This document shows, piece by piece, positions 1 to 62,692 of a stretch of 64,000 bases of DNA. The stretch spans positions 1 to 64,000 of the forward strand of contig QPGO01000277.1 of assembly GCA_008632985.1 (NCBI GenBank). Direction: 5' to 3'. A program made the position numbers and the translations under genes. Source of the stretch: Psammoneis japonica (Eukaryota). The stretch's first letter is position 1, and every line of letters starts with the position of its first letter. The notes under the pieces were generated by a model that saw nothing but the letters and a program-made list of their open reading frames with translations, had not been told where the DNA came from and searched no databases.

Positions 1-352
1 AGGCCTCCCAACTGGACTCTCCACGTCTCGTGCCTCGAGACCGGGCCTCCCAATTGGATCCTCCACGTCTCGTACCTCAAGACTCGGCCTCCAGATTGGA
101 TCCCTCAAGTCTTGCGCCACGAGACTCGGCCTCCTGATTGGATCCCCCAAGTCTCGCACCTCAAGACTTGGCCTCCTGATTGGATCCCCGAAGACTCGTG
201 TCACAAGACTGGCAAGTCCTTTTGGATTCCAGAAGTCTTGCAGCATGAGACTGGTTGCCCCAATCAGACATCTGCAGTCTTGCACCACAAGATGTCTCGC
301 TCCAATCCGATCCCCAAAGGCTTGCACCTTGAGACTCGTTTCTCCAATTGGA
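1..352. repeat. 42-bp degenerate tandem repeat (minisatellite), about 8 units, truncated by the window start
   Basis: Units such as gagaccgggcctcccaattggatcctccacgtctcgtacctc / aagactcggcctccagattggatccctcaagtcttgcgccac / gagactcggcctcctgattggatcccccaagtctcgcacctc; period 42 (14 codons), decaying rightwards. Confidence 0.85.
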
Positions 353-1599
353 TCAGTCTCTCAGGAGATGCAACTGAGCTTGCAATCGGATTGGGGGAAC
401 ACAAGACCACCGCTTGTGCCTTTGAACTCATGCTTGCTCTGTTCCCCGAGTCGTGCAAACGCCATGCCACCCTGCTCAAGCACTGCTCTGTTTTTCTAGC
501 AGCAGCCCAGTGTGGCAACCGTTCCAAGAACCAACAGACGGCTGTCAGTCTTTACGACCTTCGCTCAGGAAGTGAAGGCGATGTCAACTTGCCTGCATTG
601 TCCTGCGATGTTGCCCCACCGTTCAACATTGTCAACCAGACCAAGCTTTGCTCCTTCCATTGCAAGTGCGGATGTGGAATCCCACAAGATCCCAAGTGTG
701 CCTTGAGCTTTGAAAAGCACAACGGCATCTGCAATTGGGGAGATGCAGCTCATCTCAAGATGACCCACTTGGAGAATGCAGCGTTGCTCCAGGATCTTGA
801 TCCTTTTTTGTCTCCTCATGTTTTGGTGCTTTGACTCCAAAGTTCTTCAGTCAATCCAAAGTCGAATCTGTTTCTGTGACTCTTCAAGCAAACTGGGGAG
901 TGACAGGATTTGAACAGGATTTAGGTGCGCACGAAATGTCGCGCGCTGTTTAGTTTGCCGTGCACAGTTTTGTGTGCTTTAGTTCCGCGCGTTCGCGCGC
1001 GATGCAGTTTGCTTTCGAGCCACAAGGCTCACAAGAACAATGACAGTGGCCCGATCATACCGACTTACACGTCTTTCGGCTCCTGCAACGGTCTCTGAGC
1101 GGAGACTCATCTGCCACTTAGACAGCAGCAAGGAGTCATTGTTTGAATTCTTGCCATTTGCCTTCAATTTCTGTCACTCTTCTGCTCGGAAGAATGCATG
1201 TCCTCCTCGATTTTTGTACACCGGAACATGCAAAAGCATCTGCTGCAGCAACAACGGTTGTGAAGTGGAGTGCTTGAGTCATTTTGCTTGTTTGACAAAC
1301 GAAGCTTCAAGGAAGGCGTTGAGTGTTGATTGCTGCATGCCGGTTCCAGCACCACCGATGTGCAATGTGCAGCCAGAGTTCATTGCTCATCGGCCGGACC
1401 ACACCCACCCGGACCCGGGGAACGGACAAGCTGGCAAAAAATGAGGATGATGTCACTCACAGTGCTCGCAGAGCGAGCTGCTCTCCACTGGCTAGAGAGG
1501 GCCCCACTCTCTAGAGCAGAGAGCAGAGCAGAGAGAGAATGGTGGTGGCCACTCTCTGCTCCCTAGAGAGAGAGACTGCAGCTGCTGCAGTCTCCAGTG

Positions 1600-2900
1600 C
1601 GACAGTGCGCGAACATGTTGTGTTGTCTGCCTGCGGGTTGGGGCGTCGTCAACAAAATGTTTCAACTGTCATTTTCAGCGACAAGTTGTTGGCTGTTGAA
1701 CCCATCTTCACTGGGCTCATTCTCTCCCAGAGTCGAGTGGGTGAAAGGTTGCAAGCAGGGCCAAGTGGCTCTGGTGCCCCTGTGCTTTTCTGCCAAGCAC
1801 TCCTGTCAACACCCATGCTGGTCATTTGGCTGGCCAGCTCCTCCATCAGCACCGTTGCACTGTGTCCATTGTGTGACTCCCCTCCCTTGTTGCCAAGGAT
1901 GTCTCTCTTTGTTGGACAGTGCAGTTGTTGATGGGTTGAAGATTGCTGTGTCCATTGCACGTGGTGGCAACAGCTTGTCCTCTGCCAGACATGAGCACAT
2001 TTGGGAGCACAGCAATTGGTCAGAGTTTGTTGTGGGCTTGATGGACTGGGGTGTGTGCGCTCTGCAAGCAAGAGATGTGTGTCTGTGGTCACACTGGCTT
2101 GTGACTTGTTGTCAACAGACAAGACTGTTTGTTGGCATGGCCCAGCCAGCCTGTGCTTCTGTGTTTCTTATGAGCACCCAGTCAATGGAGAATGAACAGG
2201 GCTGTGCAGCCAAATGCTTGCATTACAAACCATGGCAAAGGCCATTTCTCCAGGGGCTTTGAAAATGTTGTGACAAGTTGGGACAATGCCTCCTCCTCTT
2301 CATGGCTTTTTTCCTGCATTTTGGAAGCATGGTTTCATGGGCTGATGAGTTGTCTGTGGAGCTGCCTGCAAGGAGTCTGAGAGAGACAGAGCCTGCATTC
2401 AAAGAACTGCAGAGAGTGTGCAGAGAACATCCAAGCTGTGGAGCATGCATCAGACTGCTCATTTGCATGAATCTAGCATCCTTTGGTGGTGCCAAGAAGG
2501 AAACAAGCCTGCCAAAAAGTGGGAACTTTCTCATCCGGAAATCTTGGTGGGGCCCATGGGATGACACAACCACAGGCCAAAGTTCACAGACATGATGGCA
2601 TTGAGTCTGAGAAATCTGCTGAGCAACAATGAAGCAGAGCTTGTGGCTGTGTGCAACAAGCTTCAAGAACATCAGGTCAAGGATCACAAGCAGAAGAGCA
2701 TCAATTGCACTCCACTGCCAAGGTCAGCAATTGGGTGGCCATGGTGTGGCCCTGTCTGAAAGAAAGTGTCAATGAGGCCAGAAGTGCCAAAATTCTGGCT
2801 GACCCTCATCCCAGTCCCTTCTGCCATGCTGGCTGTCAGTGCACTGGAGAAGTGTGGTGGGTCAGCATTTGCTGGCTTTTGCAGAAAAAAGTGCAGTGGT
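1600..2900. other. Unclassified TpA-depleted, probably repeat-derived sequence
   Basis: Only 3 TA dinucleotides seen in about 1.3 kb and contiguous with the copia relic; no protein motif recognised. Confidence 0.4.
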
Positions 2901-5900
2901 GCCCATGGACTGGACTTTTTTTGTGTCCTTGTTGTCAGCTTTGAATGCAGTCTGATTGTCAGGCCTGGCCCTCACCAGGGAGAGATGCAGCTGCTTGTGG
3001 TGGTGAAACATGCACAAGCTGGCCCACTTTGTTCTTGCTCAACAATGGCATCAAGGCATCAATGGCAAAACAGGCTTTTTTTGGCAGGGTGTGCTGTGAC
3101 ACCCCTGACATTGCCTGGAACCCAATGGCCAATGGTGCACTGAAGAACACAGCCCTTCTTTGTGAATTTGACCCTGCCATCCCCAGAGAAATCAGTGGTC
3201 ATTTGTGCAGCACTTTGCTCCAACATCCAGTGATGGGCACACTGTTTTCTGCCTGCACTTGTTGTTGAGGGCCATGGCAATGTCCAGTGGCACCCACCAT
3301 TTGATGTGAAATGGTTTCATTTCATCAGCAACATGCCACATTGTGGCACAGTGCTTGCCACATTGATGGTCTTGTTGACCATGCACCAATCATGTGGGTT
3401 CCTTGACTTGAGTCCTGGGTCTCACCTGCACAGGAATGAGGGCAGATTCATCCAGAGGAGAAGAGCTCCTTGGAGGATTCCATGTGTGGTCCCTTTTTCA
3501 GCTCCATGAACAACACAGGTTTTCCCTTCTCTCCATTGCCACACACTTGTGGCACTTCCTTGCATCAACCCAGTGGAGCAACTCAGCCATCTCACCCTTC
3601 AGTCTTGTGTGTGTCAACCAGCCCATGATGTCACTGTGCATGAATGCACCTTGCAAGTTGGTGCTCATTGCTTGGCATTGCTCCTGTGGATCAATTGCAG
3701 AAGACAGAAATGAGGTGTGGGATTGCTTCTGTCAGCGCAGAGATGTTTCCTCTTTGCTTTTGTGTGGTCGTTGTTTCTTCCTGTCAGTGCATCTCCTGCC
3801 CTTGATTGCGCTGTCTTGCCTCTGCTTGAGACACATGAAATGCCTTTGTGTGTTTTTCTTTTGCTCCCTTGTTGTGTCTTTGGCAAACACCAGCTGGACA
3901 ACATTGCAGAAGGATGGCTGCTTCATTTGCTTGACCACAGCATCAGCTCTGGCTCTGCCAAGCCAACATCCACTTGGCAAGGAAAAGTGCCCCCCATCGG
4001 GCCTTCAAAGTGTTGGATGATTGGGCGCAGCAGCCAGCCCAGCTCATGATTGCATCTGTGGCTGCAGCCCTTCTCCTTGCAAGCTTGAAGGTTGCACACC
4101 TGGCTCCTCTTTCCACATCAGCACCTGTGGTCTGCCAGTGCCACCATCATTGTCTTCCTCTTTGTCACAGTCACAACCAGAGTTGGGGCCACACTCCACT
4201 TGGAGGGCAGGTGCTTGGTCATCCCAGTTTGCCCCCATGACTTCAATTTTCATTGCTCATGTCTTTGGTCTGTCCCAACTGAGCTTGTCTGGGAATGAGT
4301 TCCAGCACCTGGTCTGAGTCAGTGCTGCCCACATCCGCTCCTGCATTTTCTGCTGGTTTGGTCTGTCACTCCCCACTCTGGCTTCTTGAGCAGCTTCTTC
4401 CACTCCAGTCATTGCACTGGGGCACAGAGTGTTTTCTGTTGAGGGGTCTTCCACTCTTGCTGTTGGCACCTCTCTCCAGCAAGTCTCCCACTCATGTGGT
4501 TGCCTTGGCTGTGGGTGACACATCTGCTCCACCAGCCAATGCATCAGATCTCCATTGGAAGCCATTGTTGGTGGGTGCACTCCTGTGACCCAAGTGTGTC
4601 TGGACAAGGGTTGGGTCTGAAATCAGCATCATCTGAGGGATCAGATGAGCAGCCACCATTGTCAAGGAGGAGTTGTCAGCAGAGTTGTCATTGTTGGGGT
4701 CACAGCTTGTGCTCTCATTGTGCACAGAGTTGGGGTGGTGGGGAAGTCAATGTCCACATCTGTCAGCAAAGGCAAGGGTTCAGCACATGTCTTGGCTGGC
4801 CCTGAGTTTGTCAACATGGTGAACAACATCAGACAGCATGGGCATGGCTGTCCAGTGGTTTTTGCAAATGACATCATGCTTGTTGCCAGTGGTGAGAAAA
4901 ATGAAATGGTGCCCCCCTTGTCCATTTCCTGCAAGTCTGAGGCAGACAGCACTGGTGGTTGTTGGGTGCACAGTGTTGTTGCACTCTTCATGGACCTGAG
5001 CACAGCTGCCAAACTCAAGGGTTGTGCATGTTTTTGACAGTCAATGTGCTGACCAGTGGTGACACAGCTCCCTGGTTGTGCTGCCAGGGTTCAGGAGCAG
5101 TGCATTGAGCCAGGAAGTGGAGCTGCAGACCAAATGAATGAGGATCATTTGCAAGGTTTGCTTGAAGGGAAGGGAGCTGAAGCCACTGTGCCTCCTGTCC
5201 TTGACTGTTCAGATGCGTTGCTCAACATCTGCCATGTGCACTCATCCTGTGAGTGTGCAGGTTGAATGCTGCATTTGGCATGAGGTCCTCAAGGGCCTGG
5301 AATTCTGGGTCAGCATGAATGGTTGCTGTCAGGGTTTGTCAGTGCCAACACCTGAGGACCATGTGACCTTCTTGAGCATGGCAGCTGCAGCACTGCCCCT
5401 GCTGTGTGGTGGCACATGCACTGAGCTTGCTGCTCTTGTTGCCACCACCACATCCTTTGGGCTTGTTGTGCTGCTCAATGTCCTGCACTTTGTCTGGCTC
5501 CTCTGTTGCACTGGTTGACAGCGACCCTTTCAGTTGTGAAGGCTGGCTCAGTTTTGTCACTGTGAGTGCCACCATTGTGGTGCTCAGGTGGCACACAGTT
5601 GAGGGTGCAGCTGCAGCAGGTTCCTCTGCAGACTTTGGGCCATTGTCCAAACCCCTTGAGCACTTGCTTCAATGTCTGCCACAAGGTTCCCACATCAATT
5701 GTGGTTGCTGTTGAGGAGGGGAAAACACCCCCAACAGATTGACTTTGTCCCCTCACAGATCAGTCACAAAATGGGAATCCCGGACTCAGCATGGGTTCCA
5801 TGTTGTTTGCAGGAAACTCCCCCCCCCCCCAGTGGCCAGAGCTGGCATTGGGCAAAAGATTTAAAAGTTCACTTCAGCTGCAGCATGCTGCATCAATCCT

Positions 5901-6047
5901 CTTGCTGTCTCTCCCACCAGCATTTAATTTGCTGTGTTGTGTTGTTTGCTTCATCATTGACTGTGTCAAGTGTGGGTGGTGATGAGGTTTCTGAGCCAGT
6001 GCTGAAGTGCAAGAGAATCAAAAATGTCTTTGAGCTTGACCCTTGGA

Positions 6048-8370
6048 TCAACCCTGATGCAGGCAAGAGTGTCTTCACTGACAATGAGTTGGACAGTGCA
6101 CTCTCCAAAATTGCACACAATGAGTGGTGTGGTGCATTCCCGCACAAGGAGACAAACTGTTTTGGAGATTCAAGAGGTGGGTGCCAAGGAAACTGAAGAT
6201 TGGACAACAACAAGTGGCACGTTGTCCATTTCAATGTCAAAGCAAGTGCAACTGCCATGTGGAGATTGTTCAAAACCATCCAAACAACAACCAAATTTCC
6301 AAAGGATTGGTGCCTCATGCTGACTGCAATGTGTCTTTCTACAAGAGCCAACTGGCAAAACAAGTCTTGCAAGTCTTTGGCTTGCCATGGCATGCTGAGT
6401 TGCATCTGAGTCAATTGCTTCAAAAGGCCTTGGACAGAATTTGAATCTTGACAAGGGTGCACAGAGGAAAGCCCAGAGGATGCTTTCAAAACAAGCCAAG
6501 CAAGTGTTGAGGTTGTGCCCCACCAACAGAGAGAGTGGAGTGGGGTGGGGATGCATTGTGGATGCCCTTGAGAGATGCAAGCATGACTCCATGAGTCCTG
6601 ACGCATTCAACAAGCACACAACATGGGTGCTTTTGTGGTGACAAGCATTTTTGTGACAGCAACGCAGAGCAACTGCGTTGTGCTTTTTCTGCAGAGAATC
6701 TGCTGCTGAAAAGATGTTGTCAACTTGCGCCAGGGCAGAATTTCTTTGCTGTCAACACATTGCACCCACAAAAAGGCTGGTTTAATGCCAATCAAGGTTG
6801 TCAGTTTTAAACGAGATGGCCACATTGTTGCATGTGGTGTTGCATCAAATGAAGATGAGGAAACATGCAAAATCATCTTTCAGAGCATCAAGAAGGCTGT
6901 GAAAGATGTTGTTGGTAGATGTGTTGCTTGTGGGGATCAGCATGCTTGGGATGCAGTGGAGAGAGCAAAGTGACAGTGGAATTTAAATGCTTGTCAACAC
7001 AATGCAACACAGTGCAATGCAGTGAAATGTGGTGCAACATGCTCTGGCCACCACCAGCTGGTTTACACTCAATTTTGCAATGAAATCATGAGTTGATCAT
7101 TTGATCTTTGCAAATTGATTGTAAAGAAAATGTTGTGCAATGCCATGCAATGCAGCACAACACATGCAATGCAACACAGAAACAGCTCATTGACTTGCAT
7201 TCAATTTTGCACTCCAATCACAAATCTTTCATTTGGGCTTCATGAGTCAATCATCAGGGCTCCTCCATGCTTTGCAGTCTTGGGACAACTGAAAAACTCA
7301 ATGTCATTTCTCAGTGCTTTGCCATGGCACATGAATGGCAGTGCTGTGCATGATGCTGGCAATCTTGCATGTGCCAGACATGAACCTGTGTTGATGCCTC
7401 ATTCCAAAAGCTCTTTTGTTGGCATTGCTTGCAGCCCTTTGTGTGTGAGCATTGTGTGAAGCTCTTTTGTTGTGACTCAAGTCATGTCATCTGATGGTTG
7501 GATCAACCTCACAATGTGGAATGTCTTGATTCAATCCACAGCCATTTCACAACTCATGTCACACTCAGTGATGGCTTTTTCAGGGTTCAGGAGCAGCGTC
7601 TTTGTCTTGTGTTGATGCAGCCATCAATTTGTTGCAAGGCCTTTTTTGCATGCATCAATGTCATCTGCATTGATGCCAAGGGCAACAAGGTCATTCTCAT
7701 GAAATGCTGCCCCCAACAATGTGTGGCCCTTGCAGCAGCAGCCATTCCAAGATGCCCATGGCCCTGTGGATTTGCTTCAAGGGTCACACATTGTTGGGGG
7801 CAGCACTGCATGAATGATCTTGTTGTTGACCTTGGTGTTGATGCAGACCAACCCCAATGCAGGCAAGAGTGTCTTCACTGACAATGAGTTGGGCAATGCA
7901 CTCTCCAAAATTGCACACAATGAGTGGTGGTGTGTTCCTGCACAAGGAGACAAAGTGTTTTGGAAGTTCAAGAGGGGTGGGATCCAAGGAAGCTGAAGGG
8001 TGGACAACAACAAGTGGCGTGTTGTCCATTTCAGTGTCAAAGCAAGAGCAACTGCCACATGGAGATTGTTCAAAACCATCCAAACAAGAATCAAATTTTC
8101 AAAGGATTGATGCCTCATGCTGACCACAATGTGTCTTCTTTCTACAATGGCCAACTGGCAAAACAAGTCTTGCAAGTCTTTGGCTTGCCATGGCATGCTC
8201 AGTTGTTGCATCTGAGTCAATTGTTTCAGAAGGGCCTTGGACAGAATCTGAATCTTGACAAAGGTGCACAGAGAAAAGCCCAGAGGATGCTTTCAAAACA
8301 AGCCAAGCAAGTGTTGAGGTTGCACCTCACCAACAGAGAGAGTGGAGTGGGGTGGGGATGCATTGTGGAC
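6048..8370 (+). repeat. Diverged direct duplication of about 510 bp (~6048-6560 and ~7850-8370)
   Basis: Both copies read atgcaggcaagagtgtcttcactgacaatgagttgg ... gagagtggagtggggtggggatgcattgtgga, with matching translations. Confidence 0.9.
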
Positions 8371-8822
8371 AACAGGAAAACTCAATGTCATTTCTCAGTG
8401 CTTTGCCATGTGGCACATGAATGGCAGTGCCGTGCATGATGCTGGCAATCTTGCATGTGCAAGACAAGAGACCTGTGTTGATGCCTCATTTTCCAACAGC
8501 TCTTCTGTTGGCGCATTGCTTGCAGCCCATTGTGTGCAAGCATTGTGTGAAGCTCTTTTGTTGTGACTCAAGTCATGTCATCTGATGAAGGGATCAGCCT
8601 CACAATGTGGAATGTTTTGATCAAATCCACAGCCATTTCACAACTCATGTTGAACCCAGTGATGGCATTTTTGGGGTTCTGGAGCAGTGTCTTGTGTTGG
8701 TGCAGCCGTCAATTTGTTGCAAGATGTTTTTTGCACACATCAAGAATGTCACCTGCATCAATGCCAAGGTCAACAAGATCATTCATGCAGTGCTGCCCCC
8801 AACAATGTGCGACCCTTGCAGT
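7290..8822 (+). repeat. Second diverged direct duplication (~7290-7738 and ~8375-8822), with an inverted partial third copy at ~7738-7846
   Basis: Shared aaaactcaatgtcatttctcagtgctttgccatg...gtgactcaagtcatgtcatctgatg...tgctgcccccaacaatgtg; 7738-7846 is the reverse complement of ~8750-8860. Confidence 0.85.
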
Positions 8823-9879
8823 GCATCCACAGGGCCACGGGCATCTTGGAATGGCTGCTGAAAAGAAAAAAGCGGCCCTCTTGTCAAATTGATGTGGAGT
8901 GAAATTTCATTGGTGGTTTTGCCAGCTGAAGCAGTTGAAAAAAAACCCAGAAAACAGAGTCCTAAAATGAGGAGTTGGTGCCTGTTGAGGAGGGGCACAC
9001 CCGAGCACTTGTTCTGGATGGTGGTCTCTGCCTTGGCCTGTTCTTTTGCCAATGGGGCATCAGCACCCACATCTGACTCTTGCAGAAAGGCACTGACCTG
9101 CTTGGGGTGCATGCCAATCTGGCCTGTCATGCACTCCATGATGCCCATGAGTTCTCTTGCATTGTCACAGCAATCCGCACTGGACATGTGGAGGGTTTGA
9201 TGGAAGGTGAGTGGCGCATGTTCAGTGTCAATGATCATGTGCATGGGGGGAGGGACTTCTCCTGGTCTGCTTCTGCATCATGCAGTTTTGGATCAGCTCA
9301 AGTCAGCCAATGATGCTGGCATTGCCGTTGACATCTCTCCAGTCGCTCCTTGTGTGCTTCCATCCAGTTTCTGAGAGGTCAGGTGCTGGACAAGTGTTGG
9401 GGTGAAGACTCCACCCAAAACTTGTGATGTGATTGGCCTTGCTGGACGTAGGAACTAGTGCTGTTGATCTCCAAGAGCATCGAAAAATGACCCTCTTTGG
9501 ATGGTTTAGCTGCTAAATATTTGCTCATTCATGACAAAGATGCAATTTGTGTTCAACGATGTGTCTTGTAGACATTATTTTGAAACGAAGCATTGCTATC
9601 AAAACTACGAAGAGCCGTCTGTCTAGAGCACGGAAGAGCTCGTTGGTTTGAGCCGACAGATTCTTTGCTTCCCTCGTCTCCTGAAACGCACTGCAATGAA
9701 TTCTCCGAGACACCCAGTATCGCATGAAAGAGACTAGAGGGTTCCTTTCCATCGTGGTTCTCGTGCGAGCGCCAAGACGATTGATCGTTCACAGTTTCAC
9801 ACAAGACGTTGCAGGTGTCATGATTATCAGTGTGCATGAATGGACGAATATGGTGTTCATCACGATGAAAACATCTGAA

Positions 9880-28432: not shown

Positions 28433-29503
28433 GTGCCGACAGCAACAACACAAGTTGAACTCGAACGAAAAAAAAAATACCGAAGGAGTGTGCGGTGTGG
28501 CGATGAGATGATGAGATTCACGTTGCGCTCAGTACATTTCCTACGCAGCTTCTACGCAGCATCGCCAGGTCACCCGGCTGTGTTCTGTGCCTGGGTGCGT
28601 CATGACGAAAAGTTCAACTTGCACAAACACGAACCAATTGGTGGCGTTTTGATTCCGTCGACTGAGCTGATTCTGTTGCGAACACCTTCTTTACGTAAAC
28701 ACCGTATGAGATTTACATACGAAGTCAATACCAAGATCCGACGCCACGTGCAAACTAAGTATTGGATGTACATGACCACTGTTGAACCAGATCCAGACAC
28801 AACGCCGAAGTTCGGCCAAGTGGCGCGTGTGGCTGCGCGATGGACGAGTCGTGTCGCCTTTTCTGCTTTGGGATAGAATTCGAGCGCCGCATGGCAGCCT
28901 GCGTTGAAGACAAGAACATGCCCCCCCACTGCTCTGCGATGCACCCTCCCACCAGTTCCTGCAGCCGTGCATGAAGAAGGTGCCTTCCAGGCATCAAAGG
29001 ACAGACAGGAGGAGAGCATTGATGAGCATGGCAGCCAGCAAGCACCAGCGGGGGACTTTTTTGGCGCGCAAAGTTGGCTGTTTTCACAAAACAAAAAGAG
29101 CCCCTCTGTGCCATGCTCTCCCACTGCCCTGCTTTGTGCTGGTTTAAAGAGCAGAAGAAAGGAGAAAGACAAGGCAGCAAGCTTCAGCCATGACACTCTT
29201 GTGGAGCTGCAGCAGTGCCTCGCCTGCACCCTCGTCCACGCTGCCTCTGCAGCAACAAAGCTTTTCTCTTTGCACCACACCACCAGGGGCGCTTTTCTTG
29301 CATTGGCTGTTGTGAACAACTCCTGTGCACTGACAGAAAGCACACCTTGTGGAAAAATCCAAAAAAAACAGCAGCACTTGGTGTGGCTGGCACTGGCAGT
29401 GCTTGGAAAAGAAACGCCCCTTTTCACTTTCCCCAGACATCAGTCTGGAAGGCTCAGGTCCAAAAGGAGAAGAGGTGCAGCAAGAAGTGGGCAACTCAGA
29501 TGA
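28433..29503 (+). pseudogene. Unknown ORF interrupted by one TAG (28874-28876); 3' half is TpA-depleted
   Basis: ORFs 28433-28876 and 28904-29503 are in the same frame; Tyr is present before the stop and absent after it. Confidence 0.4.
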
Positions 29504-29935
29504 TGATGTTGTGCCAGCAGCACGGATGTCAAGCTGCCGCAAAAGCAGCGCCCCTTTCTCTCCAAGAAAAAAAGAAAGCTCTGTGTGGGTGCCCCCCCCT
29601 GCTTGTGCCTGCAAGATGCAAAAATGTTAACCACCGCAGTTGTCCGTGACAACATCAGCAGTTCTTGGATGTTGGATTTTGGAATTTGGAAGCTGTGCTG
29701 CGCAAGAGCACAGGCAAGAGAGCCCGGGGTGAGCGAGATTGGCCATGATGCTCTGTTTCTGCAGAGCTGGTGGACATTTTAATTCAGAGAGTTGCAGTTT
29801 ATGTTGCAGCACAGTTGTTGCATTTTGCGTTTTGCTTCATGTAAATGACTTGCTCAGCTTGAAATTGATCTCCGTTGATGACATTGAATGAACAATGATT
29901 GCATGCATGTGAAAACCAGGTTTCCGTTGGAGTGC
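28880..29935. other. Isolated TpA-depleted domain of about 1 kb, probably repeat-derived
   Basis: Only a handful of TA remain (tttaaa, gttaac, tttaat, tttatg, tgtaaa), against normal TA frequency on both sides. Confidence 0.7.
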
Positions 29936-31998: not shown

Positions 31999-32430
31999 CT
32001 ATCCGCTCGTTGGATTCTTCTTGCTCTTCTTATGGAGTGGTTGTTCCCGGGTGCTGTTACTGCCGGGTAGCGAATGAATATGATGACGACGACGTCGACG
32101 CCTAGAAGAGTCGCTTACTGCAGCTCCCTGCCCATCATATTGAATGCCGGAATTGATGGGAACCAAAAAGGACCAAACGTGCTTCATGACGGCGAGTGGA
32201 ATGTTGGCGCTCAAAGACAATTTATCCAAGATCATGCGCTGCGTATCCACTAGTTGCATCAGATCGGCAAATTTCCGAAGCACAAGGTAGTAGATCGTTG
32301 GCACAGCACCGCGGCTCAAGTCCAAAGGGGTCTCGTTGTGTTCATTCTTGACCACAAGAGTAAAAGGGTCTGCCTCGATCAGTGCGTCAATGACCTCGAC
32401 TGTATTCGTGAGATCTTGGCCTCCAGAAAA
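31999..32430 (-). pseudogene. 3' portion of an ankyrin-like-repeat gene whose 5' end runs into the transposon cluster
   Basis: VEVIDALIEADPFTLVVKNEHNETPLDLS resembles an ankyrin-type repeat; the upstream in-frame sequence is TpA-depleted and not gene-like. Confidence 0.5.
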
Positions 32431-33414
32431 TGAGCTCCCTGCCCATTGTTGCCATTGCTGTGGTTGTTGCAGAACAGAGTGCGTCTTTTGAAAGAGAGAA
32501 AAACAGGAGCTCTTCCTCTGAGCAGGGAGAGGCCAAAAGGAAGAAGAAAAAACCAAGAGGACAGTGGAGCACGCGGGACCCCGTTTTCCGTCACCGTGCT
32601 TTTTGTGTGACAAAAAAATCTCATCCGAGCTCGTGCTTTCCCCCAATTTTTCGCATCTTCTTTCATCAGATCTGCTCATTTTCATGGACCGGCTGCCTTC
32701 TTTGTTCATTGAGGGTGTGGACAAAAAGAGAAAGCTCTTTCAGAGTCAATTTTTTGGTCTAAAAATGACAGGAAACCGTGCGCGGCAGTTTTCCGAACGA
32801 CTTTGAGTCACTGTTTCTCTGCTTCTTTCATCCGATTTGACTGTTTTGAAAGGATGTCCACATTCTCTGTTGTGCAAAGAGCTCACAGCAAAAAAAGAAT
32901 GGCACTCTAACTCCATTTTTTGCATGTGAAAAATCGGGGGAACTGACTTCACACGCACCCTGATTGTCACAGAAAATCTGTGTCGATTTGAAAATTGGGG
33001 GTTGCATGAAAAATCAAAATTTTCATTTTCCCCTGTTTTTCACGTGTTTTCAAACATTTTGACTGAAGAAAAGTCGTCGTGTCGAGAAAGGGGGGCACAA
33101 CCAATGTCGGTCGTCCATCATCTCGAGCATGCACTGGATGGCACCACGTGAGTGCGAGTCAGAGAGGGGGCAGCCAAATGTCGCCTTGTGACGTGCGCAT
33201 CAGAAGCTCACTGCTCGTGCCCCTGGCTTGAAGACGTCAGTGCTCTCGTCTCAATCGGTCTCGCTCATCATTCGACCCACCAACGAGCTGACGTGCTGGG
33301 TGGGAGACATCATTGTTGTCATCACGTCTGGCGATTCAGCAGCAGCCTCAGTCATTGTAACTTTTGATGCTGAGACCAAGCTGCTGCACAAAGTTTTGCT
33401 GTTTTACTTGTGCA

Positions 33415-34460
33415 TCACGAAACCCAACGAAAATTTGTTTCAGACAAGACAAACCGGCTCTCTTGCAGCCACGACTGAAGAAATGTCACAACAAATGTTG
33501 CAAAATGTCCCAACTTCTCAATGGGTTCCCATTCATCCAAGCACTCTGCTTCAAAGGGTGTGCATCCCATCACAATGGAAAGCTGTGTGATGTTCGCCAC
33601 TGTTTGGAAGACAAGGTGATGCGTTGATCGATCATGACGATGTGCTCTTGTCATCATTTGGAAGCGCTTGAACCAACCGTTGACAGCTTCGTGGCGGGCA
33701 CGAGCGGTGGTCTTCATGCATTGGTCGGCATTGCGCAGGCCGGTCGGGGCCACACAGTGCTGGTGTCCGTCACTGTGTGCCCCATCAGCTGAGCAAAACT
33801 CTCCATCTTGAAGTTCACAATTGATCGCCTCTCGTGCTGTGCTCAAATCAGGAATGCCAGCTGGGTGGGGGGCATTCACCCAAACTGTCCAACCTGTCAA
33901 AATGCGTGTGGCGATTTCGCACCCAAGCCCTGCGCCATTGAATTTGTGCGAATGCCAGATGGGGTCGAACGGCGATGGTTCATTGATGCGACAGTCAGTG
34001 CCGTCCACCGTCACCTTGCATGCGCTGCCATTGTCATCCACAAACCTGTTCTCCCAATCAATCTGTGATGAAATTGTGGTGAATCAAATGTCAGTGCATT
34101 GATTTTCAAAGAGAAATTGGAGTCATGGTGCGCACCAAGTTCAAATTCGCAATTGGCGCCATCCCAACCCACACCCATTTTCTCAACACATCCTCGTGCA
34201 TGCCACCGCAGATTCTGGCCATTGTGGTTTCAGCGTCACACAGTTTCAGAAAACAAAGTGTGTGCAACAAATGAGTGGGCAGAAATCCGCGTGGGATGCA
34301 GCCATCATCTTCAAGAAGGCCCCACAACTCACACACTGCGTCTCGCGGAGAGCAGAAGTGTGAGGCAAATCTGCGGTTCCAAATCCGTTGTGACCTCATC
34401 GGCCTCTGGATGACTGTCCCCACAAGACAATCTGCTGTGGCTTTGGGCAGGCGCATTTGC
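33415..34460 (-). pseudogene. Harbinger DDE transposase (intron 34135-34063); frame open but Tyr-free
   Basis: HLLHTLCFLKLCD, RKWVW, IDWENRF, VTVDGTDCRINEP, WHSHKFNG, VWVNAPHPAG, ADGAHSD, RARHEAVNGWFKRF, VANITQL. Confidence 0.9.
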
Positions 34461-35353
34461 ATGGTGAGCAACACAGACGTGTGTTGCGCGCACGATGTTC
34501 CATGTTGTGTGCTAAAAAGATTGCTGCTGCGCCAGTTCCGTGCAGCAGTGTTTTTGTTGCCGCAGGTGGATTGATGGCCGGGTGGGGTTCTCATTCATTT
34601 CCAACGTCTGACAACAAGGTTTTGATGTCAGGCCTTTTAGTGAGACTCCCTTCGAGAACGCTTTTGGTGCGGTCCCGGAACGGTGGAAACACGGGAATGA
34701 TGAATGCCTGTTTCGTCGAATGGCATTTCCGTGTTGGAGCTGTTGGCGGTTGCTGCAGATGTGGTTTAGCGCCAAACAATGCTGGCAGTTACAATGAACC
34801 CTCACAGCTCAACTCACAGCCACTGTAAATCAAAATCATTGAGACTTCCAACAGTCGTTCTTTTTCTTAGAGAAAATGGAAACCTGTTTTGATGGGTGTG
34901 CCTTTTTGCAACAAATCCATCTAATCTGCCAAACTTTTACACTGTTGTGCCATGCTCAAATGGTTCTGACAATGGCGCACTGGCTGCAATGCATCACATG
35001 TCTCATCGGCAGATTGAGAGGCTCCAAAGTTTGATTTCTGCGCGAATCAGTGCAATCGAGAACATTCTCGGAACGGTTTTGGAACACTTTTGGAACGGCA
35101 CGCAAGGGAATCTTGAGCTCCAATGCTTCACAACAGTCCCCCCCGACAGGCCTTTTTTTGGTTTTGGCGGTTGCAGTGGTTTCAAATTTGCCGGGACTTG
35201 CATGTGTGGGGTTGACCATCCCACACAAAGAGAGAGTTGAGACGGTCATGAACAACTCAAATTGGAGTTCGGGATTCGATGCGAACCTTGCCACAGTGTG
35301 GCAAGCAACACGGCATTCAGAGGATTTGCAGCTTGCCTCGTCATAAAATTGAG

Positions 35354-36420
35354 AATGGTGACCAACACACACACTGTGGTGCAAATGAACACAAGGAGCA
35401 AGTCAGTGCTTGGCACTGACTTGAAGCCGCCTCCCGCCTTTTGAAAAAACTTGCCCGACTGGACACTGCTCAGGGATCTCCTGTTGCAAAAAAGGGTCAA
35501 TCCTGGAGCGTCACCAAAGGAGGTTCAGTCCATGCGTGCAGAGTTTTTGAAGCATCCTCTTGCCAAATTTGCACTCAGCTGTGCAAGCTGAGGAAAGAAA
35601 CTGGTTTCAACCTGTGTCAACGAAGCGCTGATGACAGCACTGCACCACCGGCAGATGACGGCACTGGTGGAAGTGAGTGTCGCCACATGCTGCACTTTGT
35701 CAAATGAAACAGAATGCACTCTCATGTTGCTCTTTTTTTCTCTTGACTGTTGTCCACTGTTTCAAAAGGGGAAGACCTCAACATGGACAAGGACAAGCTC
35801 TCAGCCGACATCGGCCTGTCGTCAGCCAAGGAAACCGGCAGTTTTGCAGCTGTCGCCCCCACTGCTTTGGACCCCCCAGCATTTGAGGACGACCAGACAT
35901 TCAAGCCCATGGTTTTGCAGGCGACCTGCAAGGATTCTGTCAACAAGACAGACCATGTGGTGCTGGTGATTGTAGCTCCCTCAGGAGCATGCACTGAGGA
36001 CCTTTCTAGCTTCAAGCTCACGGTGACGGGTGGCGGTTGGTTTTTACAGTGCACCTCCGAGTGGCCGGGTCACAGCATGGACATGGACTCACTCCATGCT
36101 GTGCTGGTGGAGGAGGCACAATCCAAGGAGACCAAGAGCTCAGGGATGTGTGCAAGCGCCTGAGGCACTTTCGGATCAGTTGTCCTCCATGAGGTTGTCA
36201 GACAGCGATGTTTTGGCATCAACAGCCACTGTTTCCTTTGCCCATCAAAGTGTCGAAAAAGATTGACAAGGTTCATCTTTTGGGGGGTGAGGATGGTTCA
36301 AGAATTGTGTGTGTTGACCTCAAAGCTGAGGACTCAACATGCCGCTCTGTGGAGAGCCCCAAGGTCATGTTGATTGATGGCACCACTTGCATGGAGAAGC
36401 AGGGTGCGCGGCGTTTCTTT
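35354..36420 (+). pseudogene. Harbinger accessory (second) ORF, degenerate
   Basis: Lies within the TIRs, divergent from the transposase; MNTRSK...LRDLL...PKEVQSMRAEFLKHPLAKF, then a probable intron from gtgagt (~35673) and DHVVLVIVAPSG; contains stops and frameshifts. Confidence 0.55.
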
Positions 36421-37935
36421 TCATTTTACACTGTTTTGGTTTTCACAGCAGCAACAAGGACAAGTGTGGCGGCTGTCATTGGAAATGCCAGCAGTTTAGA
36501 ACATCAGTTTAATTGCATCATTCTTACTTCTTAGCACAGCAGTGTCTTTACGTCTTAGTTTCAATCCACAAAACATCGTTGACAACAACACCGCGTAGCC
36601 TCCGCTGTTGGCTACATCGATGCGAGCACGGGCTGCCACCTCGGCACCGCAGTCGGCAGCATCGGCTATCGGCATGCGTGCTGTTCGCACGATCCTGAAA
36701 ATGCGAGAAAAACAGGGGAAAATGAAAATTTCGATTTTTCACGCAACTCCCTGTGAGATTGTTTTGGGGTCCGAACAAATTCTGCGAAGTCATTGCAACG
36801 GAAAATCTGGAATCTGGACCCCACACAAATGCATGCAGGGTGTGTGCAGACCATGCCGGGCCCACTTTTACCATGCCGGGCCAACAGAAGGGTTCTTCAA
36901 AGACGCACTGGTTTGGCCAATTTTGGCAAAAACCAACCCCAGTTTTAGCCGAACACAATTGAAAATCTGTGCTTTTCAAAAATCTGCAACTGTTTCTGTG
37001 GACCCCTTGAAAATCTGCAAGAAATCTGAGCCCCAAATCTGTGCCACAGATTTTCCATGACAATCACGGTGCATTTTTTGCGTGATCCGCTGTTTCAAAG
37101 ATCAGCTGATTTGTCGACCTGTGTGGGAGTCTTGAGTCAGTCACATGCCAGCAGCAAAATTTCAGCATCAAAGTTGGGTGAATGTGGAGCAATTGAGTCA
37201 TTTGACGAGCAGAAGCAGAGGCAACAATGAAATGTTGACAGCACTTCAATGCCCAATTGACTGGCCCCACCTCAGAATGAAGCAAAATGGCTGCAAAACA
37301 CAGATGTCACTAAAAGCGTTGTTCTGTTTTGCAACATCGCAGCTGCCAGATTCGTCCAGTGGCTTCTCAACCCCCATGCACCCTCACAACTGAGTGCAGA
37401 ATCATTCTTTTGTTGGCGCCAATGTTTGATGCTTGTGTGCGACCCAAAAGCACAGTCCATGCCAACACTCAAAGTGCACTCAACCCATCATAAAAAGCAC
37501 ACTGACACACCACAATGACGTGTGATGTTGCTTGCATCAAGCATCAATTCAACAGAGCCTTGCATTTTGAACAACACTGCACTGCAATCTGAGGATGAGC
37601 AAAAGAGGCATCAAAAATGTCGTGAGACGAAAGGCTGTCCAGAAGACACAACAAACGGCAAACATCAAAATTTCAGCCACATCATTGCATTGAGCTTAGT
37701 CTCATTGACCCATTTTGCCATTCTTGTCTTCTTTGACATTGCGGATGTTGGTGTGAGGATGGTTGAGTTCATGGCGGTGGCATGGGGCCATTTTTGATGT
37801 GCACAATTTGTGGATGAGACATGAAAAAAAGACAGCATCGCACGGGAGCTCAAAAATTGCACGCGACTGTGGTGCAAAAAGTGCGTGCCACAGAGAAATG
37901 CACAGAAAACCTCGCGCATTGTCCCCGAGTGACCC

Positions 37936-40184
37936 CAGGGACACAAATGTCCAGTCAGATGGGATGTGACACGTGGCACAAAAAAATGGGCCCTTTGCGT
38001 TGATTTTAAGGTTTGTCCACATGTTCGTGCACAAACAAAATTTCAATGTTCAAAATTGACATGGGCAATCCCTTTGATGGGCCAAAAGTGAGGGAAACTG
38101 AGTCTCAACGCACACGCACAGCTCACACTGACATGATGCCACATTGCCATCATTCTGCTGTTTTCTCCTTCGTGATTCCACTGTTGCTCTCCCTTGTGGT
38201 CACATGCCGATGCACTCACTTCTCCATTGGCTTGTCATGAGCAAATGCATTTTGCAAATGCCATTGTGCTCCTCTTGCTCTTCCATTTTGTTGCTTCTTG
38301 TGGTGTGTGAGCATTTTCTGAATGCCTCTCATGTTGCTGCATTGCATTGCATTGGATGCATCAAATTTTGCCATGCCCCTCATTGCATGTGTGCGTCTTC
38401 CTTTTTCTCTTTTCAGCTGCTCATTGAAACTTGTGCACAAGAAACTCATGTGAAAGCGACCAAATCGACAACGCAACTCGGTTCCTCCAGAAATGCCACA
38501 TCATGAAAAAGCAAATCCGAGCGACTTTCAGCATCCATCGCAGGAGTGGCGTGCATGACATGCACCAGCACTGAAGCAAGAGGGTGCACATCTGGTGTCT
38601 CTTTCATTTGTTGCTGCACCCCACAATGCGCCCCCAATTTTTTGGCTCTGTTTCTTCTCCTCAGGCTTGGTTTCCTGCATCTGTGGCAAACAGCAGTTCC
38701 CGTCTGCTGGCACTTAGATTGGCGGGGTTCTTGACATGTTTTGCATCTGGCATCTCTTTGTTGCAGTGCCCCATCCAATGCAATTCTAAATTTTAATTCC
38801 GTTTCTTCACCTTGGGTTTTGCATCCACGGCCTTCACCTTTTCCTTCAGCTCTTGCCAAAAAGCTGTCAAGCTTTCTTTCTTGCCTCCATGCTGGAAGTT
38901 GAGGGATCGATGCCGCTTGAGAGCAAAGGCAACACAAGCATGAAATGTCTTCAGCACTGCCTCTTTCAGCAGTGGAGTGGCGACACTGTCATCATTTTGT
39001 TTGGCAAGTGTTTGAAATGCAGCCAGCCAGTTTGGCATTTTCGACAGAGCACATTCTTGTGCAATCTTTGCTGCTTCATTTCCTTTTTCTGATGTTTTCT
39101 TTTCATCAACATTCACGGCAACTTCATGGACAATCTCACGTGCAAGCACAACACAAGAGTTGGGTGCATCAAAGCAAGTCACCCTTTGTTGAAGAAGTGA
39201 TCTTCCACTCAGCAGCATCTTTCCAAATGCACACAGTTGCTCACAATGTCTGCTTCCATTGCGCTCATCATGCAATTCAGCATCCTCCACCTTTCCTTGT
39301 CATGAGCACAGGCAGCATTGTCCTTGTCATCATCAGAGAGCTTTGACATTGAGCTGAACAGAGCCCCTCCCACAAAGCGGCAGCTGGGTGTTTGGCGGCA
39401 GTGGCACAACGGAGCTCTCAAATTCTGGAGAAGAGAGCCTCGACATCAGACTGATTGGGGTGCAGTGCTGGCATGAACTTGGGTCCATTGTGAAGATTCA
39501 AAACTGCTCTTGCGTGGGAAAAGAACAAAGTGCAATTCCAACATTGCAGGCTCTGCCATTTCATGTCATTCTTGCTGCACTGGAGGTTGTTTCAAGCTGC
39601 TTTGCACTCGTGAGCTGAGCAGCTCCACACTGGGTTGGGCACACTTTCCTCATCACCATTGTCTTTGTCATCCCGCAGCTTCTTGGAATCAGCTGCTGGT
39701 GCAGAGCACTTTTGGCTGAACGTTCAGCAGCCCACCCAGGTGCACTTTGTTTGTGTCTTCTCTGGAATCAATGCCATCCGCTTCTCCCACCAACACAAGG
39801 GGAGTTTGTGCATCACACTTTCTGTCCAAATTTTGCCTTGCTCTTCAAGGACGCTCTTGAACAGACTTGGCAGTTCTCCGCAGATGCAGGTTAAATGATC
39901 AGACACCATGGTTGATGCAGTTGGTCGGGCAAGAAGTGAGCTTGTCTTTTCTCTTGCACGATGTCCACTTGTGTTGGTGCTGTGTCAAAGCGTGTTGTTT
40001 GATTTTTTGTTTTCCCTCACTTTTGGCCTGTCAAAGGGATTGCCTGTGTCAATTTTTAACACTTGATTTTTGTTTGTGTGCCCATGTTGGACAAACCCTG
40101 AAATCAATGAGAAAGGCACAAGACCCCCCTGCAGCCGCCACGTGGGCATGTCACATCCCATCTGACTGGACATTTGTGTCCCTG
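37936..40184 (-). mobile_element. DNA transposon with ~165-bp imperfect TIRs and an 8-bp TSD (P-element- or hAT-like), degenerate
   Basis: Termini cagggacacaaatgtccagtcagatgggatgtgaca / tgtcacatcccatctgactggacatttgtgtccctg; flanks agtgaccc (37928-37935) and agtgagcc (40185-40192); internal minus-strand motif NQSDVEALFSRI* (~39460-39418). Confidence 0.85.
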
Positions 40185-40913
40185 AGTGAGCCACCTGGGT
40201 TGAAAACACATCCAAAACCTGTGCGCAAAACAAAAAGTTCCTTCTTCCCCATGGTGGCACACACACACGAAAAAAGATTGAAGAAAAAGTCATTTTTGCA
40301 TTTTTGCAGCCAATCTCTGGTCTTTTTGAGCCACTGGACACAAGTCAAGCTGTTGTTTGCTGTCCCTTTTACCAAGTTGGTCAGGCTTTGGCTTTGGGGG
40401 TTTCCATCCTCCATTGGCAGGGGGGGGGAACTGCCGAGGCAGCAACGCGAAGCTTCTCAACACACACCCGCAGAAGCGCGCTGCCCACAATGACAGCCAG
40501 AAGGTTCAACCCCTTTCAAAAACACACAGAAGTGGCTCTCACATTGTCGCTTTTGCTTGTCTAAACCTGCACCGGAATGAGGTGCTATCTTGGCTGTCAT
40601 TTTGCTCGTCGTGCAAAATCTTCTTTGGACTCTCGACTTGTTTGAGTTTCGAGGGAAAACTGTTAAAAATCCATGTTTTTGTCTTTCTTCTTTTTTCAAT
40701 GTATTTCGTGAAAATGAAAAGGAACACGCTACTCCCATTTTTTGAGACATCGATTCCTCTTTCAGAGCATTGTCACGTGTCAATTATGAAGAAACATCAA
40801 ACTTGAAGGAATCTCTCTTTTATTTCTTTTTTGCGGTGTGCGTGTGCCGATGAAACGTGCAACAACCGACGGGTCTGGCAGAACACACCAACAACACAAA
40901 ATCGTTCAACACC

Positions 40914-42601
40914 ATGACGACGGAAGCAGCCGAAACAGCCATACTCAAACACCTATCGTCCTCCCGGAGGCCACGATTGAGGATACCTTTGTATGGTCCG
41001 GAGGAAACAAGCTCGATCATATTGTCGTGGTGGGAGCCGTCAAGAGTCTCATGGCCGACGAATACGTCGCGGCCAGCAATCTGGAAATGAGCTTTTACAC
41101 GCTTTCCAAGGAAGCTCAAGATATTATCGAGAATGGTTCTCAAGAAATGATCGTACTAAAGGCTGTATCCGAAGCGGGTAAAATAAGCATGAAGGATTTA
41201 CAGAGCAAGGTAGGAAAAAACGTTGCGAAAATTGGAATGGGAAACTGCATGAAGTCCAAGTGGATCAAGAAGGAGGGAGCCGATCTGGTTCCAATCAAGC
41301 AAGCTGATGAAGTTGAAGATGAAGTTCAAGCAGCCTTGAAGGGATTGTCGAACGCAGATGGGAACCCTGACGCCATTGACGACAAGGTGAGTTTTTCGGG
41401 CCGCAACAGGTCCCTTCTGTAAAACAACGGTATTTTGACTAATCATATTGTTGAATTTCCGCAGGTTCTCGCGGGTCTCAAGCGTAGAAAGCTTATCAGT
41501 CTCGTCACTAGAAAGTCATATCACATCTCTCGAGGCCCCTCGTATGCCATAGAACGGGTGAAAAAGGCTGCAGATCTTACAAAGGAAATGTTAGATTTGG
41601 GTTCTTGGGAGACGACTCCCTTCAAACCGTACAACTTTGCGACTCTTGGCGAAAAGGTGGGAGGAGGCTACTTGCATCCGCTCTTGAAGGTTCGAGCCGA
41701 GTTTCGAAAGATTCTCATGGAGATGGGATTCCACGAAATGCCCACAAACAAGTGGGTCGAGTCGTCCTTTTGGAACTTTGACAGTCTCTTTCAGCCGCAG
41801 TCTCACCCCGCCCGTGATGCGCACGACACCTTTTTCATCAAGGAACCCGCCAGCACCTTGTCTGTACCAGAAGAGTACTATGAGCGAGTCAAGGACATGC
41901 ATGAACGCGGTGGATCTGGATCTATCGGATATCGTTATGACTTCAAGAGAGAAGGTGAGTTTTAGAGTTTGGTAAGGAGCGTGTTTGCAGTCGTTGTTGC
42001 AGTGTGAATCTAAATAGCTTCGCCTCTGCGTATCATTAATCGTTACACAGAGGCTATGAAGAACTTGTTGCGAACACACACTACGGCAATTTCTTCGCAG
42101 ATGCTCTACAAGCTTGCCAACCAAGAGGGTGGCTTTACCCCGCAACGGTACTTTTCGATTGACCGCGTCTTTCGCAATGAGACCATGGACGCAACTCACT
42201 TGTGCGAGTTTCACCAAGTCGAGGGCTTGGTTGCCGACTATGACTTGTCGTTGGGAGATTTGATTGGAACCATTGAAACCTTTTTCAAAAAGATTGGAAT
42301 CACACAGCTTCGCTTCAAGCCAGCCTTCAACCCGTACACGGAACCGTCCATGGAGATTTTTGGTTACCACCCAGACTTGAAAAAGTGGACAGAGATTGGA
42401 AACTCGGGAATGTTTCGGCCGGAAATGTTGGCGCCCATGGGCCTCCCAGAAAATGTGCGAGTGATTGCTTGGGGTCTCTCGTTGGAACGTCCCACCATGA
42501 TCAAGTACCGAATCAAGAACATTCGTGATTTATTCGGACACAAGGTGGACATGGCGAGAACGCGTACCGCACCCATTTGCAGGTTCGAGGCGGCTGAGTA
42601 G
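40914..42601 (+). CDS. FARSA: Phenylalanyl-tRNA synthetase alpha subunit, cytosolic (3 exons)
   Basis: [69 protein letters not shown]. Confidence 0.97.
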
Positions 42602-61327: not shown

Positions 61328-61475
61328 CAGCGTCCTCATTTTCAATTTGCCTTTCCACCATGGGCAATCCGCTCCGCGGCCTGCGAGTGTTGGATCTTTC
61401 CCAGCGTCCTCATTTTCAATTTGCCTTTCCACCATGGGCACTCCGCTCCGCGGCCTGCGAGTGTTGGATCTCTCC
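61328..61475 (+). repeat. 74-bp tandem duplication spanning the CoA-transferase start codon
   Basis: 61328-61401 and 61402-61475 differ at only 2 positions. Confidence 0.95.
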
Positions 61476-62692
61476 CGTGTATTAGCAGGACCATGGTGCA
61501 CCATGCTCCTTGGAGACGCTGGTGCTGACGTTATCAAGCTTGAACGAACCAAAACTGGAGATGAAACGAGAAATTGGGGACCACCGTTTGTCAACGGCGA
61601 CGTTTCAACGTACTTTTTAAGTGTCAATCGAAACAAGAGTTCAATCGCGGTAGACATTAAAACAACGGAAGGATTGGATCTATGCCGTCGTCTTGCAACA
61701 GAGTGGGCGGATGTACTTGTCGAGAATTTCAAGGTTGGAACAATGGAGCGACTGGGTCTCAGCTATGAAACATTGAGGCAGGAGAATCCAGGTCTCGTTT
61801 ATTGCAGTATTACTGGGTTCGGAAGCACGGGACCACTGAGCAGTCGACCAGGATACGATGTCATCATCAGTGGGATGTACGGTCTCATGTCAATCACAGG
61901 AGAAGAGCATGGAGATCCCGCCAAGGTGGGAGTTGCCATTACAGACGTGGTGGCGGGTACTCTGGCGCACGGAGGTATTCTTGCAGCCTTATATCAACGA
62001 AACCGGACCGGACGCGGTCAACAAGTGGAAACATCACTCATGGAGACGCAACTCGCCTCCTTGGTCAACATTGCCTCCAGCTCACTCAATAGTCCAGAGG
62101 GAACGCCGCCTCCACAACGATGGGGTACCGCACACGAGTCCATTGTGCCTTACCAAACTTTTCCATGCAAGCACGACGACGGTGAGGAAAAGCAATACGT
62201 GGTTGTTGGAGCTGGAAATGATTTACAGTTTAAAAAATTGTGCAACGCCATGGGCATGGATGAGGTGGCAAGTAGCGATCGATTTAGAACAAACGCGGAT
62301 AGGGTGAAAAATCGCAACGAGCTTGTTGCTGTGCTAGAAAAGAGATTTCTTCAAAAGACACGAAATGAATGGGTAGACTTGTTGAGTGACAAGGGTTTCC
62401 CGATTGGACCCGTTCGATCCGTTCCTGAGGCGTTTGAATGCGAACAGGCCATTCATCGTGGCATAGTGACAGAGATGAACCATGTTGTTGCGGGAAGATC
62501 AAGTTGCCAAGGACTCCCATTTTGTACGTGGGCGAGTCAACAGACAATTTGGATAAACCAAAACCACCTCCCATGCTTGGAGAACATACCGAGGAGATCC
62601 TCACCAACGTTCTAGATATGACTCCTGGGGAGGTTCGAGCATTAGAACGAGCCGGGGTGATCGAGTGTTGGCGGCAACAAGAGCCAAAGTAG
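61434..62692 (+). CDS. CoA-transferase family III (CaiB/BaiF; succinate-hydroxymethylglutarate CoA-transferase-like); frameshift ~62495
   Basis: PLRGLRVLDLSRVLAGP, GDETRNWGPPF, NRNKSSI, DVLVENF, SITGFG, RPGYD, PPMLGEHTEEIL. Confidence 0.95.

Follow-up and report, generated by a model that had tools for sequence, protein, structure and literature searches.

The stretch analysed here (the window) comprises 64,000 nucleotides of the diatom Psammoneis japonica, positions 1 to 64,000 of the forward strand of contig QPGO01000277.1 (assembly GCA_008632985.1), and carries on its minus strand a transposase relic of the DDE_Tnp_4 (PIF/Harbinger) type in which neither a TpA dinucleotide nor a tyrosine codon is left. 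The explanation favoured, with a probability of roughly 0.82, is that a copy of a multi-copy DDE_Tnp_4 transposon was hit after its insertion by mutation of TpA to TpG or CpA, with decay of CpG alongside. The signature is specific for TpA and for one direction of change, is confined to repeat blocks and recurs in other copies and other data sets; the process acted after duplication, on both strands and almost to completion. Its cause would be enzymatic, the likeliest activity being a deamination of adenine at TpA within silenced DNA, which has been proposed for the chlorarachniophyte Bigelowiella natans, and its targeting may be that of a genome defence against mobile DNA.

The gene is described by a model joined across one intron, with the following parts:

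33415..34462, minus strand: transposase relic, DDE_Tnp_4 (PIF/Harbinger-type), 324 codons, 0 Tyr, 0 TpA
34462-34136, minus strand: exon 1 of the gene model
34063..34135 (read 34135-34063), minus strand: intron of 73 nt, donor GTGCGC and acceptor CAG (GTGCGC...CACAG), at a position conserved in the family
34062-33415, minus strand: exon 2 of the gene model, with the TGA stop at 33415-33417
33601..33603, minus strand: Trp codon TGG, residue 287, candidate former TAG, aligned with the stop of the five closest relatives (coordinates from the gene model)

The model runs from an ATG at 34462, followed by a second ATG at 34456, and joins two stop-free frames, one of 222 aa (33415..34083) and one of 162 aa (34106..34594), where the motifs WHSHKF, GLGCEIA, ADGAHSD and FEAECL are found. 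The original prediction, made from the letters of the window, had described two exons free of premature stops and of tyrosine, and both points hold: the coding frame contains only the terminal TGA (14 and 18 stops in the other two sense frames), and the 324 codons include 16 His, 16 Cys and no Tyr, where the median of the 150 best relatives is 3.5% Tyr, 3.8% His and 2.8% Cys. In 5000 first-order Markov simulations a 324-codon open frame was never reproduced, and the frame is therefore inherited and not a product of chance. The 1048 bp of the gene, intron included, contain 0 TpA against 33.6 expected from the window's own background (P=2.5e-15). CpG had been called abundant, and 48 are indeed retained, but at an observed/expected ratio of 0.70 and with one Arg-to-Trp change (codon TGG) consistent with CpG decay, so that CpG has not gone untouched.

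The loss of tyrosine is selective. Of 113 alignment columns where at least 50% of the 134 ordinary relatives agree, 108 have a consensus other than Tyr, and 81 of these are retained in the window; none of the five Tyr columns is retained (Fisher P=0.0014), and two of the five are near-invariant in the family (96-98% Tyr). The five read Cys, His, Cys, His and Cys, with codons TGT, CAT, TGC, CAC and TGC, every one a single transition away from TAY. The five closest relatives (P0283-P0287, 54-64% identical to the window protein, all Tyr-bearing) define eight columns with Tyr in at least three of them, and here the window has Cys four times and His four times. The prediction that family Tyr positions read His or Cys is thus borne out in 5 of 5 consensus columns and 8 of 8 closest-relative columns, and it is not contradicted by the close relatives, which have Tyr there. 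All tyrosines are affected since every TAY codon contains TpA; further replacements obey this rule too, Ile-to-Thr (codon ACA) twice and Val-to-Ala (codon GCA) once.

The end of the frame was also expected to have been lost through mutation of a TAA or TAG stop. All five closest relatives terminate exactly one residue before the window's Trp TGG, which fits a change of TAG to TGG; past this codon the frame continues 37 codons to TGA, and it extends 41 residues beyond the last conserved Tyr column, compared with a median of 7 in 100 relatives. Removal of TA can create neither TAA, TAG nor a new TGA, hence no new stops appear, and in this respect the proposed disabling of elements by missense load and stop loss, unlike repeat-induced point mutation (RIP), follows from the logic of TA removal. 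The inactivation itself would be a consequence still at one remove: transposase activity was likely lost, since two tyrosines conserved at 96-98% are replaced, though the conserved Asp/Asp/Glu columns are kept.

A selective origin can be imagined, in which the family evolved TpA avoidance, for instance to stabilise its mRNA or as an escape from insertions or nucleases that target TA, and the Tyr-free protein is functional. The open frame and the retained Asp/Asp/Glu columns would agree with it, as would the recoded relative P0298, in which 6 of 6 sites have the same His or Cys as the window and which fits the propagation of a recoded element; judged from the alignment, this sharing hints at duplication of copies that were already recoded. 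Such selection is nevertheless extremely improbable: the intron, the flanks and the neighbouring unrelated elements are equally TA-free, near-invariant tyrosines have been replaced, the stop codon is read through, other genomic copies keep TA at the same sites, and the window frames fall below the Pfam thresholds though 25 of 46 relatives carry PF13359.

The loss of TpA is not limited to the gene. Three blocks were identified in the window, none with an assigned strand:

1..9448: erased block that has paralogous segments within it, TA observed/expected 0.05, CG 0.18
28875..29779: small erased block, TA observed/expected 0.04, CG 0.34
32404..40561: erased block with the transposase element, 38 TA in 8158 bp, TA observed/expected 0.07, CG 0.54, TG 1.57, CA 1.70
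Rest of the window, outside the three blocks: background, TA observed/expected 0.54, CG 1.01

Relative to the background, the blocks have 0.11x TA and 0.34x CG, together with 1.53x CA and 1.45x TG, and the remaining 12 dinucleotides stay within 0.83-1.20x. The edges are sharp: on the left, 32000-32403 has 14 TA (13.5 expected) and 32404-32626 has 0 (7.7 expected); on the right, the count goes from 1 in 40185-40561 (13 expected) to 11 in 40562-41000 (19 expected). The gains of TG and CA are about equal and Tyr to Cys is as frequent as Tyr to His, therefore no strand bias is present. The GC content is 0.49-0.53 in the blocks and 0.48 in the background. GC-biased gene conversion was considered and is ruled out, AT, AA and TT being unchanged. 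The background ratio of 0.54, next to 1.01 for CpG, seems rather low for TpA; weak action of this process across the whole genome, or ordinary avoidance of TpA, might account for it.

Instead of a dedicated defence, the loss of TpA could be a passive by-product of heterochromatin chemistry: a base modification of silenced DNA, on the A or T of TpA, could for example mispair at replication, much as decay of 5-methylcytosine removes CpG, and neither a regulated mutator nor a recognition of foreign DNA would be involved. CpG decay accompanies all three blocks and peaks where the loss of TA is complete (block 1, CG 0.18 and TA 0.05), the loss continues for some hundreds of bp in single-copy flanks, much like a chromatin mark, and TG and CA rise about equally, without the strand bias of a transcription-coupled process. 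The two losses are not simply coupled, since the 32-40 kb block has TA at 0.07 and CpG at 0.54, and in B. natans no more than 11 of 15 lines had the process switched on, a pattern read as regulation by the authors (bioRxiv 10.64898/2026.01.13.699255). The by-product and the enzyme-defence versions predict the same sequence signature and fit it equally well; taken together, the by-product version is possible but rather unlikely.

The copy number of the block and the direction of change were obtained from X1, a public run whose reads were assembled into contigs; it comes from a single sample, its library type is not on record and it may be the assembly's own data. X1 contigs cover the flanks at a depth of about 57 but approximately 32.6-40.4 kb at 100-2570, and the 32-40 kb block is therefore multi-copy DNA. 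Compared with the other copies, transitions were counted as A>G at 112 places, T>C at 89, C>T at 137 and G>A at 117, with transversions at 90 places. Among the 40 best-supported differences between copies (511 further rows lie beyond these 40), the other copies have TA in 11 and CG in 12 where the window has TG or CA; the reverse direction was found in 3 of the 40 and CA/TG double differences in 4. At five sites, by arithmetic from the X1 depths, 19-48% of the family depth retains TA, so less-mutated copies exist.

A self-comparison of the window gave 7 repeat pairs, and in 4 paralogous pairs 79 of 115 mismatches are transitions and 15 of 35 adjacent double mismatches place CA opposite TG. Such doublets are expected if the copies, once duplicated, each resolved an ancestral TA or CG on their own and on either strand. 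The longest block (1..9448), in which the span 2500-5500 holds 0 TA, includes the paralogous segments 6046-6562 with 7846-8369 (90%) and 7283-7735 with 8367-8821 (87%); 68 of its frames reach 70 aa, and all 68 gave no Pfam match.

An artefact of the long-read assembly, where modified bases in silenced repeats are miscalled (A as G at TpA, C as T at CpG), would also be limited to repeat blocks, where heavy base modification is to be expected, and the supporting runs do come from one sample of unrecorded library type, possibly the source of the assembly. Such an artefact is very improbable. Contigs derived from reads at about 57-70x agree with the TA-free sequence letter for letter (38797-39467, at a single-copy depth of 70.6, has 0 differences), the same recoding of Tyr to His or Cys occurs in proteins predicted from unrelated ENA, JGI and Logan assemblies and in metagenome contigs, CA-versus-TG doublets between copies are not expected from a deterministic miscall, and the changes of the same kind in B. 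natans were called from Illumina data (bioRxiv 10.64898/2026.01.13.699255).

The erasure occurs in other samples too. The 150 best relatives were drawn from ENA, JGI and Logan assemblies, and 16 of them are low in tyrosine (below 2%). At the five Tyr columns these 16 have Cys 21 times, His 15, Phe 11 and Tyr 7, compared with Tyr 435, Cys 5 and His 1 in the other 134. In 80 metagenomic loci, which do not include the DNA of the 16 low-Tyr proteins (the best matches of these proteins there are 38-71% identical), the TA observed/expected ratio of the coding match tracks the fraction of Tyr (Spearman 0.53, P=4e-7). The locus L069 has TA 0.03 and no Tyr. Two contigs, L069 at 751-1250 and L040 at 4751-5500, are TpA-poor (0.06-0.29) only over the transposase relic, the rest of each contig being ordinary.

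Under the favoured explanation of post-insertion TpA mutation, the sequence of events would be as follows. A transposon copy inserts in the diatom nuclear genome, and this copy and the surrounding repeats would then mutate, a change of A to G on either strand turning TpA into TpG or CpA while ordinary decay of CpG to TpG or CpA runs in parallel. Tyr codons TAY would become CAY (His) or TGY (Cys), ATA would become ACA, GTA would become GCA and the TAG stop TGG. The frame would stay open, missense changes would accumulate and the protein would eventually drop below detection by domain models.

The element that carries the gene is about 4.1 kb long, and a second element was identified in the same block:

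32955..33052: left inverted-repeat region of the ~4.1-kb element, pairs 89% complementary
36696..37072: right inverted-repeat region, consisting of two arms (36696-36751, 37045-37072) set ~290 nt apart
37936..40184: second element, 2.25 kb, in the 32404-40561 block, terminal inverted repeats of ~165 nt starting CAGGG, TA observed/expected ~0.04

As for the terminal inverted repeats of the original prediction, inverted repeats do flank the gene (32955-33052 against 36696-36751 and 37045-37072), placed here as regions and not as exact termini. One X1 contig joins 32954 to 37069 and omits 4114 nt, a joint that fits the ~4.1-kb element and supports its outer ends. Inspection of the flanks gave no match for a 3-bp target-site duplication of this element; the process would have altered such a duplication too, if its sequence was TWA. 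The terminal inverted repeats of the second element start with CAGGGACACAAATG, their first 36 nt are perfectly complementary and a possible 8-bp target-site duplication (AGTGACCC / AGTGAGCC) is present, which would suggest a non-autonomous element of hAT-like type.

Other copies differ from the window in internal segments. Some lack 34578-35069 (contig joint 34577 to 35070), which has 7 TpA, and some lack 36366-36649 (contig joint 36365 to 36650), which has 9; the two segments contain most of the residual TpA of the element and may be later insertions that escaped erasure. A second run, X2, covers the region in patches only and its kind was guessed as DNA; it shows joints from 34462 to 34545 and from 34127 to 34301. 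The first skip (34463-34544) has GT..AG on the plus strand, antisense to the transposase, at depth 541, and the second is 34128-34300; these joints may stem from splicing or from deletions carried by other copies.

Several points weigh against the favoured explanation. The segment 36366-36649, 284 bp inside the element, is at background TA (9 against 10.2 expected), so the process was not uniform or not continuous; the segment may have arrived after erasure or may escape it. The loss of TA reaches 220-380 bp into flanks that lie under single-copy contigs, and CpG is lowered there too (32404-32626 and 40185-40561), which is either spreading or an old unrecognised repeat. Surviving TAs of the blocks are biased in context: 51 of 67 are TTA or TAA, where the background has 637 of 1641 (P=2e-9), with YTAR in 38 of 67 against 294 of 1641 and with no ATAT, GTAT or ATAG left; this could be a preference of the enzyme or regeneration of TA by other mutations. 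The intact Asp/Asp/Glu columns weigh against a firm claim of lost transposase activity. The X1 runs are not independent of the assembly if they are its own data, and the term repeat-targeted relies on one window, single-sample runs and short metagenomic contigs. Finally, the host of the precedent is not a diatom, and the hypermutated regions there are viral and single-copy, not transposons.

Assignment to the PIF/Harbinger type is, on protein similarity, to be taken as a statement of homology and not of full membership, because neither a Myb-like second open reading frame nor a target-site duplication was found. An exhaustive phmmer search gave 1821 relatives of the window protein at E<=1e-3, and in a word-indexed search the best relative was 64% identical (E=4.6e-67). 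Precomputed PF13359 (DDE_Tnp_4) was present on 25 of the 46 listed relatives at E<=1e-10, and some listed relatives are labelled 'DDE superfamily endonuclease' by their source; of 13 relatives scanned, 4 passed the PF13359 cut-off and a fifth scored under it. The two transposase frames of the window gave zero Pfam matches, both at E<=0.01 and at E<=10. Invariant columns D27, D100 and E132 (numbered in the 222-aa frame) are common to all 20 aligned sequences, and we take them to be the DDE catalytic residues. The likeness to PIF/Harbinger is thus formed by homology to PF13359 proteins (E down to 5e-67), the Asp/Asp/Glu columns and the flanking inverted repeats; the differences are that the family is short (full-length relatives of ~300-330 aa) and that the window copy is under every Pfam threshold. 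The designation as a Harbinger transposase is accordingly kept for the homology to PF13359-bearing relatives and not for the remaining hallmarks. No Myb/SANT-like second frame was identified when all 139 frames of the three blocks that reach 70 aa (34.5-37.1 kb included) were compared with Pfam, all being below thresholds with two sub-threshold chance matches only; mutational decay could be hiding one.

The intron is a family character. A gap of 25-151 nt is found at the same place in 31 of the 34 metagenomic loci with both exons, and the donors, read from the printed strings, are GTAAG or GTACG in 27 and GTGAGT in 4. The suggestion that the GTGCGC donor derives from a GTA-type one is thus plausible. 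At position 34065 the other copies carry A, which makes a TAG acceptor there.

The closest known system was reported in a preprint on B. natans (Mettrop et al., bioRxiv 10.64898/2026.01.13.699255, dated 2026-04-14). In mutation-accumulation lines, two viral regions integrated in the genome received 231 of the 302 nuclear point mutations; 230 of these 231 were A>G or T>C, and the GC-biased ones were, according to the authors, all on TpA. TpA-depleted genes were enriched for DDE endonuclease and reverse-transcriptase domains, TpA-poor windows formed 124 clusters and an ADAT2-like deaminase was proposed. The window agrees with a process of this type in that the changes are on TpA (TA and CG depleted, TG and CA enriched) and, for this one window, in that three sharp-edged blocks were found, one coinciding with multi-copy DNA and two inverted-repeat elements. 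The TpA-to-TpG/CpA signature is common to both systems, demonstrated experimentally in B. natans and seen here as an end state only.

The two systems differ in several respects. B. natans belongs to Rhizaria and the window to a diatom; its single-copy inserts of a giant virus and a virophage keep TpA (3.3% and 9.2% of dinucleotides), whereas the multi-copy transposons here are at 0-0.07 observed/expected, and its background TpA is 6.0% of dinucleotides compared with ~3.6% in the window. CpG is absent from the main text of the preprint, as are diatoms, and here CpG decay accompanies the loss. A flanking-base preference is not met in the parts of the preprint considered, and here the residual TAs favour TTA/TAA. 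A literature search covering diatoms and other organisms gave only this preprint as relevant, its supplements lying outside the search.

Two other systems invite comparison. RIP, a process of fungi, changes C to T mostly at CpA, creates TpA and many stops and leaves AT-rich DNA. Like RIP, the process seen here consists of transitions confined to repeats in sharp blocks, with possible leakage into the flanks and permanent disabling of transposons; unlike RIP, it destroys TpA, loses stops instead of creating them and leaves GC about the same. RIP itself is ruled out by the wrong direction, TpA being lost and not gained. ADAR enzymes edit A to I in double-stranded RNA derived from repeats and prefer a 5' U/T neighbour. 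They resemble the present case in the A-to-G outcome, the 5' U/T neighbour and the use of repeats as targets, but they act on RNA, which is not inherited for a DNA transposon, and here genomic DNA is changed on both strands at essentially every TpA.

The kind of process is therefore already known, from one recent preprint and another lineage; what appears to be new is the combination of a diatom, DNA transposons and near-complete erasure. A wider proposal can be made tentatively, at somewhat less than even odds: diatoms would possess a heritable, repeat-directed TpA mutator that acts beside CpG decay, prefers TA without a 5' T or 3' A neighbour and disables transposons through missense load and stop loss, not through nonsense mutation. 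As a chlorarachniophyte shows this signature too, the mutator would be a genome defence of the SAR group (Stramenopile-Alveolate-Rhizaria), either ancient or acquired more than once, and a mirror image of RIP. If real and general, targeted hypermutation of TpA to TpG/CpA would extend from one chlorarachniophyte to diatoms, a major group of phytoplankton open to experiment, and from viral inserts to ordinary DNA transposons. Annotation of such genomes would miss transposons and call false genes, because erased elements keep long open frames below domain-model thresholds (as the 139 frames here, with no significant Pfam match). Near-complete erasure with sharp edges would give a simple genome-wide marker of silenced DNA, and the flanking-base bias of the surviving TAs would be a clue to enzyme specificity. 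If the diatom mutator is true, its enzyme could be found in a group with genetically tractable species.

The genes that neighbour the blocks are long, nearly intron-free eukaryotic frames, identified as GH38 mannosidase, Nup85, glutamyl-tRNA reductase and RPL4. The RPL4 of the window is 78-90% identical to 120 listed relatives, with the best hits at 89-90%, and those with an organism label are all diatoms (Nitzschia, Cyclotella, Conticribra, Ditylum, Cylindrotheca and others). On this result and on the lower background TpA, the idea that the window is B. natans DNA was rejected. At 61328-61476 a 75-nt tandem duplication, 97% identical, was identified at the start of a frame of CoA-transferase family III.

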